From a virus (lineage: Duplodnaviria; Heunggongvirae; Uroviricota; Caudoviricetes): a stretch of DNA of 27,415 bases. Location of the stretch: positions 1 to 27,415 of IMG/VR virus record IMGVR_UViG_2681813230_000002, one strand, 5' to 3'. Under the pieces are notes generated by a model, which was not told where the DNA came from, ran no database searches, and saw nothing but the letters and a program-made list of their open reading frames with translations. How positions within the stretch are numbered: position 1 is the first letter of the stretch; every line of letters starts with the position of its first letter. A program made the position numbers and the translations under genes. Of this stretch, positions 7,351-11,940 are shown piece by piece.

Positions 7351-7427
7351 AAGAAAACACAGGTCCGACCGCCGTTTTGAATTCTCTTCTAAACGACTCT
7401 AGTTTGATTTGAGTATGCAATACGCGT

Positions 7428-7451
7428 AAAAAAGCCCCGCATAGGCGAGGC
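7428..7451 (-). terminator. Rho-independent terminator downstream of the peptidase cassette
   Basis: Minus strand reads GCCTCGC-CTAT-GCGGGGC (7-bp stem with one G-U) followed by TTTTTT. Confidence 0.55.
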
Positions 7452-7470
7452 TGGAATCAGACAGGGGGGA

Positions 7471-8373
7471 TTAAGACTGGATATTCCAAATCATTGCGTT
7501 ACCGTTATGATTTTCAATGATTTTTGCCAGTGGTGCTCCACCAAAAGAATGCATGTAGCTGTGATGTATAGTCAAAACCAAATCTTGAAGTACTTGATCA
7601 CTTTCAAGTTCGGTAACATTCAACCCAATTTTCTGCGCCTTATCAAAATGAATATGACGCGAGTGGGTATAGGTTGTGTGATGGTTGTTTAACTCTGAAC
7701 AAACATGTGTTGCTTTTGATTCTGCCTCAGGATCATTATCAAACATGCCTGTCATAAGCCAATGCTTAACAATCTCATTTGCCCATTTGATTGCTTTCTC
7801 ACACTCGCCGATGATCGTCGGGTTTAGCTTTTGAAGAATGAACTGCCACATCTGAACAGCTGCGGGATTTTGAAAAATTTCCGTCTGCGCACGATTCCAT
7901 TCTTCAATGATGGCATGGGTGGAGAAACCGTTGAACTGAGGATCAATTGGGCCAATGTTGGACTGTTTACCCATGATGATTTCATTGGCACAACATGCAA
8001 GCATAGTTCCGCAGGACATTGAAATCATAGGAACAATTGCTCTGATGTTAGTTCCAAACTTCGACCTTAAGTAATGCCCGATTGATTCCAAAGCGGCAAT
8101 ATCACCACCTGGAGTATGAAGTATCAAATCCAACCCTTTTGATACATCTAAACCATTGATGGCTGTCATCAACCCGTTCTTATCATCATCAGTCATCTGA
8201 GTAAGATGGCGTACTTCTGCACCACCATGCTGTAACCACCCTGAGTAATATGTGATTACATTTCTTCCAGTATGATTCGAAAGTTGAGATAAGTATTTAC
8301 GGCGAACCTCATCCATAGGACTTTTATGGGCGAGAGCCGTTATCTCGCCCAGTACGTCGCTCCAATTAGGCAT
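7471..8373 (-). CDS. SDH/S49-like Clp-fold serine peptidase (accessory moron)
   Basis: 300 aa with motifs LILHTPGGDIAALESIGHYL and MISMSCGTMLACCANEIIMG typical of ClpP/SppA-fold serine peptidases; AT-rich relative to flanking phage genes. Confidence 0.7.
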   Translation of the reverse strand: MPNWSDVLGEITALAHKSPMDEVRRKYLSQLSNHTGRNVITYYSGWLQHGGAEVRHLTQMTDDDKNGLMTAINGLDVSKGLDLILHTPGGDIAALESIGHYLRSKFGTNIRAIVPMISMSCGTMLACCANEIIMGKQSNIGPIDPQFNGFSTHAIIEEWNRAQTEIFQNPAAVQMWQFILQKLNPTIIGECEKAIKWANEIVKHWLMTGMFDNDPEAESKATHVCSELNNHHTTYTHSRHIHFDKAQKIGLNVTELESDQVLQDLVLTIHHSYMHSFGGAPLAKIIENHNGNAMIWNIQS

Positions 8374-8376
8374 AAA

Positions 8377-8577
8377 TCAGTACGTGTAAAGTTGATGACT
8401 TGTAGTTTGGTTTTGCTTCGATTGTGTAGCGGTACCTTGTGAGTACCAAACACCTGTGTTTCCACTCGTACTAGTTTGCTGTGCCATTACACGAGAAGCG
8501 AAGTTGTTAACAGTTTCACCAGTCAACATTTCTGCCGGTTTGATATTGTAAACATCGTAGAACTCAGCTGGGGTCAT
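8377..8577 (-). CDS. Small hypothetical protein, 66 aa, with Ser/Thr/Gln/Asn-rich C-terminus
   Basis: ORF ends 4 nt before the peptidase start; strong SD (AAGGAG) 7 nt upstream of ATG; AT-rich. Confidence 0.5.
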   Translation of the reverse strand: MTPAEFYDVYNIKPAEMLTGETVNNFASRVMAQQTSTSGNTGVWYSQGTATQSKQNQTTSHQLYTY

Positions 8578-8584
8578 AATGATA

Positions 8585-8640
8585 GCTCCTTTTATAGCGC
8601 TACATATAGTGCCTGTGCCAAGGGGGACATACTATATGTG
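8585..8640 (-). promoter_or_regulatory. Putative promoter for the peptide/peptidase cassette
   Basis: Minus strand reads TTGGCA-18 nt-CTATAA, then AAGGAG and ATG; hand-identified, weak. Confidence 0.3.
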
Positions 8641-8664
8641 CCATTGTTGTCATATTTAAATGTG

Positions 8665-8686
8665 CAAAAAGCCTCAAAAGAGGCTT
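8665..8686 (-). terminator. Hairpin plus T-run upstream of cassette (downstream of Rz)
   Basis: AGCCTC-AAAA-GAGGCT stem-loop with flanking T-run on the minus strand. Confidence 0.4.
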
Positions 8687-8947
8687 GAAAAAGATGCAAA
8701 AATACTATCTATGACGTGACTATAGCTACTTACCCACAGTTTATACAAGCCAAAAATGCTAAATTCAGATAATCCTATTCGCTGAAAAACTACACAAAAG
8801 CTACGTTCATCTTGTCATTAGATAACGTCAGTAACTTTCACTGGATCTAAGCCATTGGTGAAAAAGCTAATTGCATGATGAAGCACTGTAATGTAGCAGT
8901 TGAGGTTGTTAAATGAGAATCACCCTAACAATGTCAACGGACATTAT

Positions 8948-10550: not shown

Positions 10551-10967
10551 ATGACCATGGATGTAGGATTACTTATCGCGTCCCTTAAAAACGGGATCGG
10601 CGCGCTTTCTGCTGTGCAAAGTAACGAGGTCCTGCGCGAGCGCATCGCTTTCATTGGAGAGCAGATCGACGTACTTCAAAAAGCCCATGCTGCCACCATA
10701 GCAGAACTTGCCGAGGCGAAAGCCAAGAACGTAGAACTTGAGAAGGAAATAGCGGCTTATCGGGCAAAGGATGAGTTTGTCGAGCACATGGGTGCGGCCT
10801 TTAGAAAAAATCCCGCGGGTGGGTATATCAGCGCGGTTTATTGCCCCAACTGTCTTAAACAGGTCGGTAGCGGGTTCGATGACTTTCCTTACCATTGCGG
10901 CTCCTGCGGCTGGACTTCAAGATTTGAAGGAAGGGAGATTGATAGCGTAATGAAAACCCTCCCTTAA
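10551..10967 (+). CDS. Hypothetical coiled-coil / zinc-ribbon protein (moron, opposite strand to late genes)
   Basis: 138 aa with amphipathic N-terminal helix region and C-terminal CPNC...18 aa...CGSC pair; AGGGAA upstream of ATG; followed by two hairpins. Confidence 0.45.
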   Translation: MTMDVGLLIASLKNGIGALSAVQSNEVLRERIAFIGEQIDVLQKAHAATIAELAEAKAKNVELEKEIAAYRAKDEFVEHMGAAFRKNPAGGYISAVYCPNCLKQVGSGFDDFPYHCGSCGWTSRFEGREIDSVMKTLP

Positions 10968-11124: not shown

Positions 11125-11940
11125 TTATCGTGTTATTTGTTTCAGTTGGTTTTCTGCCCATGCCTCTTCAATATCGAATTTCGTAATCAGCTGATCATAG
11201 AACGGTTTAACGGACTTCTTCCACGTATCCAGGCTGATTACATCCGTAATCTGGCAAATAGCTGCGTGGGCCTCAGTTGAAGGAATGCGTTCATATCCAC
11301 GCCCGCCGCAGCGCTTGCAGTCAGTCATAACCGGCACACCCTGTTTCTTCGTTTCCTTCTGGTCTACGGCTTTCCCACGTCCCCGGCAATCATTGCAGGC
11401 ACAACTGACAACCTTCTTCCCCTTGCAGTTCGAGCACAGCACTCGAACCACCTCTCGAACCTGTCGTTTAACCTCGAAATCACTCGGTGACTGACCAAGC
11501 TCTTTCGCCCATTGAGGAATCCTCATTGAATAATGAGATTTCATTGTGAACACGTCGGCCTCAATAAATCCCTGCCCGCTGCAACAATCACACTGCTTAA
11601 CGCTCGCAGCGCTGCGGGAGTAATCTTCAAAAGCGAAGGTGGCCAACTGGTGCATCACCTTAGGCTTAACCCCGGAATCCAACTTACGCAGTGCGGCAAC
11701 CTTGTCACATTTGGTCATCGCATACTCAGCCAGCAGTCCGATCGCTCGCTCGCGATCGTAATCGCTGATATCCATCTTACCGAGGAATGCACTGAACCCG
11801 AGATCAGCCCGGCTCTGTGTCATTCCGATCGCCGCCATAATGTCAGTGCCGGTTAATGAGTCAGATGCGGTTGCACGTGGAGCGTCGCTAATCATCGTTG
11901 ACTTCGCGAAGTGGTATTTCACTGTGTTTTCGAGATTCAT
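11125..11940 (-). CDS. Q: Late gene antiterminator Q
   Basis: 271 aa with multiple Cys clusters (CDCCSGQG, CSNCKGK, CACNDCRGRG, CKRCGGRG) typical of lambdoid Q proteins; located between nin genes and lysis cassette. Confidence 0.8.
   Translation of the reverse strand: MNLENTVKYHFAKSTMISDAPRATASDSLTGTDIMAAIGMTQSRADLGFSAFLGKMDISDYDRERAIGLLAEYAMTKCDKVAALRKLDSGVKPKVMHQLATFAFEDYSRSAASVKQCDCCSGQGFIEADVFTMKSHYSMRIPQWAKELGQSPSDFEVKRQVREVVRVLCSNCKGKKVVSCACNDCRGRGKAVDQKETKKQGVPVMTDCKRCGGRGYERIPSTEAHAAICQITDVISLDTWKKSVKPFYDQLITKFDIEEAWAENQLKQITR

Follow-up and report, generated by a model that had tools for sequence, protein, structure and literature searches.

A conserved small gene paired with an SDH-family ClpP-fold serine peptidase gene in an Escherichia coli prophage, and a possible antitoxin-like role for its product

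The small gene and the peptidase gene

The stretch of viral DNA analyzed here (the window) is 27,415 nucleotides in length. Inspection of the sequence gave a 66-codon open reading frame (ORF) at 8377..8577 on the minus strand, stop codon included, running from ATG to TGA (8577..8377). A first-pass annotation of the window had reported this ORF and its translation and both were reproduced. A Shine-Dalgarno (SD) sequence, AAGGAG, is located at 8586..8591 on the minus strand, 8 nt 5' of the ATG. Its predicted anti-SD duplex of -7.9 kcal/mol agrees with the strong SD claimed in that annotation. The spacing to the following peptidase gene had been given as 4 nt and is actually 3 nt, as the TGA stop (8379-8377) is followed by TTT and then by the peptidase ATG at 8373. 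The ORF is exactly 66 codons in length in prophage relatives with up to ~40% nucleotide divergence. Compared to the related locus L095, 25 of 35 differences were at codon position 3, with 23 synonymous and 6 non-synonymous codons. The 66 aa product matched phrog_25714 by HMM (E = 3.9e-44), a family annotated as "unknown function". The NCBI pipeline leaves the ORF unannotated in E. coli NZ_CP025916.1 (L001 9975-10548), the chromosome inspected. Due to the strong SD, the constant length of 66 codons and the third-position bias, 8377..8577 is considered a genuine, conserved gene.

The neighboring gene at 7471..8373 on the minus strand encodes a 300 aa SDH-family ClpP-fold serine peptidase and starts 3 nt past the stop of the small ORF. 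The protein scored 81.2 bits against Pfam PF01972 (gathering cut-off 31.3, E = 8.4e-23) and its RefSeq name is "SDH family Clp fold serine proteinase". It scored 95.9 bits against the NCBIfam equivalog NF047768, below the curated cut-off of 250, and is for this reason placed in a divergent subfamily within the SDH group and not in the NF047768 equivalog itself. A ClpP-like fold, a conserved nucleophile serine and oxyanion-hole glycines, the features of the ClpP/crotonase fold, were all found. The AlphaFold2 model was confident (pLDDT 90.7). S120 in the motif MS[AC]GT was invariant across 97 sequences, as were HTPGG and GPxDPQ, and the peptidase is expected to be an active enzyme on this basis. 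A sequence search of the PDB gave no direct match, and the only remote profile matches there were to ClpP and 1510-N. The HMM match to phrog_11747 (E = 2.1e-138) was again to a family annotated as "unknown function". Homologues of the peptidase formed more than 8,000 protein clusters, with at least 598 genome matches and 326 matches in IMG/VR viral contigs. Identity was ~50-55% between the E. coli protein and those of Firmicutes, Bacteroidota, Planctomycetota, Actinomycetota and one methanogenic archaeon. A Gln/Pro-rich C-terminal extension of 20-50 residues was present in six homologues (P0075, P0078, P0102, P0106, P0127, and P0053) and absent from the E. coli protein. Neither the peptidase nor the small protein matched any PADLOC-DB v2.0 family at E <= 1.

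The two genes were compared across 28 distinct cassettes. A strong SD preceded the small ORF in every one (median -6.75 kcal/mol), an SD before the peptidase was almost never present (median +0.6 kcal/mol, the value also obtained for the window peptidase), and the gap between the two genes was 2-21 nt. The peptidase is thus probably translated by coupling, through termination and reinitiation, and would be unable to outnumber the small protein. The small ORF and the peptidase gene share a reading frame and are separated by TGA-TTT only (7471-8577, minus strand), so that stop read-through would yield a fusion protein. This arrangement is probably incidental because the spacing varies in relatives (2-21 nt, or overlap). 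In pairwise comparisons the peptidase and the small protein showed identities of 84 vs 52%, 74 vs 47%, and ~65 vs 30-37%, respectively. The small protein diverged 2-3 times faster than the peptidase.

Leader and terminator elements

The pair is bordered by putative regulatory elements, all on the minus strand. An intrinsic-terminator-like hairpin with a T-run lies at the 3' end at 7433..7452, 19 nt past the peptidase stop. A hairpin of the form AAGCCTC-N4-GAGGCTT followed by T's lies at the 5' edge at 8669..8686. Its sequence was kept in cassettes at other prophage positions (also in the L092-L139 upstream regions), and for this reason the mobile unit seems to carry its own upstream insulator hairpin. 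A sigma-70-like promoter, TTTAAA-18 nt-TATAGT, was predicted at 8631..8660 by consensus match only. The leader also contains two 9-nt inverted boxes at 8602-8610 and 8631-8639 (ACATATAGT / ACTATATGT), the upstream one overlapping the -10-like hexamer in the window. The proposed order of the cassette would be the hairpin, the promoter-like site with the inverted boxes, the SD, the small gene, the coupled peptidase gene and the terminator.

The two boxes were present in 27 diverged enterobacterial cassettes with the consensus CACTACATGTAGTG, 32 nt apart and just upstream of the SD, with co-varying positions. The leader-box alignment comprised window 8602-8639 with L002, L104, L107, L108, and L121-L156, and the boxes in it were 10-14 nt. 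When box 1 was paired with box 2, 83% of cells were paired, covariation was 0.216 compared to 0.149 ± 0.018 in shuffles (reached by 0 of 500) and there were 24 double-change cells compared to 13.5 ± 3.2. A model of two palindromes gave 80% paired cells, a covariation of 0.079 compared to 0.104 ± 0.017 (reached by 474 of 500 shuffles) and 7 double-change cells compared to 7.5 ± 2.6. Covariation was found between the boxes and not within them, and two independent palindromic operators were rejected in favor of cross-box pairing. Either a symmetric operator or a stem-loop in the 5'-UTR could account for the boxes. No Rfam family matched the leader, and its single-sequence RNA fold was no better than shuffles (z = -0.17). 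The inverted boxes were found in enterobacterial cassettes only; outside the Enterobacterales upstream inverted repeats were not above shuffles (6 of 85 loci).

Prophage context and distribution

The region from roughly 7400 to 8900 has a G+C content of ~40% compared to 50-58% on its flanks, making the cassette AT-rich. Rz-like and lysozyme lysis genes are located on one side, and the genes for the small (DUF1441) and large terminase subunits of this lambdoid E. coli prophage on the other. With its terminator-like hairpin, promoter-like match and upstream hairpin, the cassette is arranged like a classic moron. The head module of the prophage has a separate prohead protease, fused to the capsid protein. 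Two further ORFs were observed in the window. The first, at 10551-10967 on the plus strand, encodes 138 aa with a C-terminal CxxC...CxxC zinc-ribbon-like motif and lies between the lysis genes and the next minus-strand ORF. The second, at 11125-11940 on the minus strand, encodes 271 aa with several CxxC repeats. It may be an antiterminator because the corresponding slot in the related prophage L103 holds a 271-residue Antiterm-family protein.

Of 5,426 complete E. coli genomes, 42 carried a 1.55-kb stretch containing the cassette at 99% identity or more. It was always chromosomal, and lay in a prophage at the one locus inspected. This stretch had no nucleotide match in the phage collection. 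Enterobacterial prophages carried the cassette in at least three accessory slots: Q/holin, beside the tail fiber, and Rz/terminase. In a related prophage an Acb2/Tad1 hairpin-domain gene (L191:2993-3274, L192:2882-3274) was located in the lysis-to-terminase slot ~0.7 kb upstream of the cassette. Acb2/Tad1 is a family of anti-CBASS or anti-Thoeris sponges.

The cassette was present in 7 of 50,697 isolated phage records, namely a Mu-like Shewanella phage, five Porphyromonas prophage-derived records and Gordonia phage BeeGee. All seven were read as temperate from their record names; BeeGee is presumably temperate. The BeeGee record (MW601219.1) has no annotation for its partner, a 58-codon ORF at L188:3825-4001 that overlaps gene 31 through ATGA and encodes "HVRYSTSATR". 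Only 4 of 72,556 plasmids carried the cassette. One locus (L195) was on Enterobacter asburiae p16773_5, a non-mobilizable 42.9 kb element and probable phage-plasmid, where the partner ORF was intact and the peptidase was split over four frames, which may reflect genuine decay or indels introduced by sequencing. Asymmetry of pseudogenes was rejected as a toxin-antitoxin test, as the "truncated" E. coli peptidase P0066 was an assembly gap of N's and the gene in the Phytobacter case turned out to be full length.

Among 148 immediate genome neighbors the commonest, in raw counts, was integrase (6); type I restriction, mad2, and PDC-S64 were found twice each. BrxL, a retron reverse transcriptase, AriAB, HEC-06, PDC-S20, and a methyltransferase were each found once, again as raw counts. 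The rank of integrase, together with scattered restriction, BREX, retron, PARIS, and candidate-defense genes, suggests that the cassette is carried on islands or prophages.

Pairing of the two genes across genomes

Loci with peptidase homologues were compared in 80 genomes, one per species, from bacteria and one archaeon. A small ORF abutted the peptidase gene in all 80, and no other neighbor was conserved. No modification enzyme, exporter or immunity gene was conserved near the peptidase in these loci. Peptidase homologues without a partner, which would have spoken against the pairing proposed in the first-pass annotation, were looked for and none was found in the 80 genome loci.

When the profile was built from enterobacterial partners only, it identified a single relative in the other loci, and iteration was needed. 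Searched against 1.84 billion proteins, that profile gave 16 representatives, several of which were compositional matches to long S/T/Q-rich proteins. An iterated HMM of the E. coli-type partner was then seeded with enterobacterial partners and with intermediates from viral contigs and look-ups, and run against 21,256 ORFs with a minimum length of 35 codons at a threshold of E < 1e-3. It matched 107 ORFs, of which 100 were directly upstream of a peptidase gene, 7 were directly downstream and none was elsewhere. The seven loci with swapped gene order (five genome loci and two viral contigs) were L016, L045, L050, L057, L077, L183, and L185, from Lachnospiraceae and relatives or other Firmicutes, a spirochaete, and viral contigs. 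The adjacency of partner and peptidase thus outlasts the swap in order. L046 and L056 were also listed with the partner gene downstream of the peptidase. In a reciprocal look-up, two homologues of the small protein picked by their own sequence were located directly upstream of a peptidase gene. Co-expression and functional pairing with the peptidase, as first proposed for the window, are strongly supported by the adjacency in 80 of 80 loci and its retention in the seven swapped ones. The small protein is very probably the cognate partner of the peptidase, and the pair an autonomous mobile cassette.

Architecture and classes of the partner protein

Counted from the sequence, S, T, Q and N make up 65% of the last 34 residues of the small protein, and four others there are aromatic. 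AlphaFold2 predicted helices at residues 3-9 and 23-36 (pLDDT ~75) and disorder at residues 38-66 (pLDDT < 50). The tail of the window protein contains the motif GVWYSQGTA and a C-terminal LYTY. Across nine homologues at 76-98% identity 37 positions were invariant, those in the tail half being G39, T41-S46, G48-A50, and Q62-Y66. The tail had been described as low-complexity. Its predicted disorder agrees with that description, but it is not featureless, as the most conserved motifs of the protein are located there. Partners in the Enterobacterales, compared over a span of peptidase identity from 62 to 100%, kept "E[LF]Y..[FY]GI.P.E", "E[ST]...F[AG]RRV", "GV.YS.G[TS]", and a C-terminal "LY[ST]Y". 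The segment beyond the conserved motif was variable in both length and sequence. None of 76 partners had a Pfam domain match or a recognizable DNA-binding domain, and none matched a chain in the PDB. No signal peptide or double-glycine leader was visible in the sequence of the small protein.

Recurrent sequence families accounted for 65 of the 80 adjacent small ORFs. Class A, the E. coli type, was found at 20 loci. Class B was found at 24 loci and has the pattern "I..VF..LGL..EE.R..F", then a strand, then "S.ST". Class C, from Bacteroidota, was found at 11 loci with the pattern "HWTRLSINSNIG.IIE". Class D (4 loci), class E (4 loci) and the downstream-pair partners (2 loci) were small clusters. 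The remaining 15 loci had singleton partners, each an adjacent ORF of similar size. Links between the classes by hhalign were weak, with a probability of at most 25% for global alignment and 45% for one local match in the N-terminal helix. The best link was between classes A and B (local P = 2e-4) and covered the N-terminal helix only. The element shared best between classes was this helix motif, of the type E-I-x-x-V-F-x-x-L-G-I. The common architecture comprised an N-terminal amphipathic helix, a spacer, a hydrophobic strand and a Ser/Thr-rich motif, the last located 3-25 residues from the C-terminus across classes. As the profile-profile links are weak, a shared architecture is claimed beyond class A and homology is not regarded as proven.

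Possible functions of the pair

The first-pass annotation had listed a peptidase substrate or precursor peptide, an adaptor and an antitoxin-like partner as options for the small protein. The best explanation for the whole, with a probability of roughly 0.4, is that the partner is an antitoxin-like pseudo-substrate which keeps the peptidase of a mobile element latent. Binding to the peptidase would involve both the N-terminal two-helix module and the otherwise disordered tail of the partner. The conserved strand and Ser/Thr motif (VWYSQGT) would occupy the substrate groove, serving as a pseudo-substrate or a slowly cleaved inhibitor. Coupled translation would ensure that no peptidase is made without its restraint, as with a type II antitoxin. 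If the labile partner were lost or titrated, for example by phage infection or loss of the element, the freed peptidase would degrade conserved cellular or phage proteins, with an outcome of the toxin-antitoxin or abortive-infection type. This reading was preferred because the small gene comes first, coupling appears obligatory and the partner evolves quickly beside a very conserved enzyme. It was also preferred because the disordered tail holds a conserved motif, as in type II antitoxins, because no orphan peptidase was found in the 80 loci, and because the cassette is carried on prophages or islands and is rare in isolated phage records. The near absence of the cassette from plasmids is, however, unlike classical addiction modules, and the partners have no recognizable DNA-binding domain. 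The lack of a PADLOC match, a defense-gene neighborhood signal that is modest, the weak homology across partner classes and the 15 singletons among the 80 adjacent ORFs also count against it. To our knowledge no type II toxin described so far is a ClpP-fold peptidase. The pair may even be the founding case of a widespread two-gene conflict module of bacteria, archaea and temperate phages, although this extension is doubtful. In such a module a self-compartmentalizing ClpP-fold peptidase would be a latent toxin or abortive-infection effector, checked by a rapidly evolving, largely disordered pseudo-substrate micro-protein.

The partner could also be a dedicated substrate or pro-protein of the peptidase, a possible reading but a rather unlikely one. 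The main job of the peptidase would be to cut its partner at the conserved motif of strand and Ser/Thr, with Y45 as one candidate position to cut behind, and the freed N-terminal two-helix fragment, or the protein relieved of an inhibitory tail, would be the true effector or regulator. The form of the motif (hydrophobic, small polar, x, x, Ser/Thr) and its variable distance of 3-25 residues from the C-terminus fit a cleavage site with a dispensable tail, and the best-shared element between the classes is the N-terminal helix that would be released. NfeD 1510-N cutting the stomatin encoded in its operon and CalpL cutting CalpT offer possible analogues. A peptidase with ~50% identity across phyla and a partner of barely detectable homology would, however, be unusual for a one-substrate enzyme, and the N-terminal fragment matched no known effector or DNA-binding domain. 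Less likely again is an adaptor or gating subunit, a stoichiometric partner that would recruit targets to the closed ClpP-like chamber or open it. The targets would be host defense proteins, as counter-defense, or proteins of an incoming phage, with the fast-evolving partner setting the specificity. Obligatory pairing and fast partner evolution are consistent with this, as is the position of the L191 and L192 cassettes beside an Acb2/Tad1-type anti-defense gene. The LY[ST]Y kept throughout the Enterobacterales could be a docking motif, for which the IGF loops of ClpX provide an analogy. That motif is lineage-specific, however, and 66 residues, half of them disordered, offer little surface for target recognition. 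The rarity of the cassette in isolated phage records (7 of 50,697), none of the seven looking virulent, is also unlike typical anti-defense genes.

Two other readings have a very low probability. A secreted or modified peptide precursor (RiPP, microcin or communication peptide) matured by the peptidase, an option raised in the first-pass annotation, would fit the size and the Ser/Thr/Gly/Gln-rich tail of the small protein, features in which some microcin precursors resemble it. It is judged very improbable, given that no modification enzyme or exporter was conserved nearby and that the putative core past the motif varies in length and sequence. The absence of a visible signal peptide or double-glycine leader and of a conserved immunity gene in the 80 loci also counts against it. 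Marginally lower still in probability is an ORF with no functional protein, either an ORF that arose by chance or a regulatory upstream ORF whose only role would be to supply the peptidase start with ribosomes. The dependence of an SD-less peptidase on upstream translation and the missing NCBI annotation in the E. coli RefSeq record are in line with it, but the amino acid sequence is under purifying selection and the motifs are kept at 30-50% identity. In the seven loci with a homologue downstream of the peptidase the partner cannot be a coupling ORF because it is placed after the peptidase. This last reading is considered largely refuted.

Comparison to known systems

Nothing was found in the literature searched on the partner-peptidase pair, nor a described function for SDH-family peptidases. 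Apparent "DUF114" matches were to DUF1140, DUF1145, and DUF1149. If the pair is a protease-based toxin-antitoxin or defense module as preferred here, it would be a new effector class in prophage-encoded immunity. If the partner is only a substrate, the physiological target of the peptidase would be identified all the same. In either case an orphan SDH peptidase family becomes a defined two-component system, in which every member examined has a small partner that is often missed by genome annotators.

The closest resemblance in layout is to type II toxin-antitoxin systems such as Phd/Doc and CcdAB. Both have two genes with the small gene first and translational coupling, and in the window the adjacent, co-translated small gene and enzyme gene are 3 nt apart. 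Both also have a fast-evolving partner with a conserved binding motif in a disordered C-terminal tail, a more conserved downstream enzyme, carriage on mobile elements and inverted repeats in the leader. The putative toxin here belongs, however, to the ClpP-fold serine peptidases, which are not known as a class of toxins, the partner has no recognizable DNA-binding domain and the cassette is nearly absent from plasmids. In the NfeD (1510-N)-stomatin operon of Pyrococcus horikoshii (PDB 2DEO, 3BPP, and 3VIV) a membrane-anchored protease that uses a Ser-Lys dyad is paired with a large membrane SPFH protein, whereas the partner here is a protein of 55-100 aa. The structure of the signal peptide peptidase SppA (S49; PDB 4KWB) shows the C-terminal peptide of the enzyme bound at the active site, but this peptide belongs to the same chain and is not a separate gene product. 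SppA is also a membrane-associated housekeeping enzyme. The ClpP-related phage prohead proteases share weak similarity with the peptidase (NCBIfam NF045542, E = 2.8e-4; phrog_53, E = 6e-5) and a phage location. The cassette differs in lying outside structural operon logic and in also occurring in non-phage contexts. ImmA/ImmR and CalpL/CalpT likewise have a protease gene beside a small cognate protein, cleavage of which switches a response. Their protease folds are unrelated (metallopeptidase and Lon) and their substrates are recognizable repressors or anti-sigma factors. The general logic, in which a mobile element supplies an enzyme together with its small cognate partner, is known, and the version with an SDH ClpP-fold peptidase is new as far as the literature searched shows.
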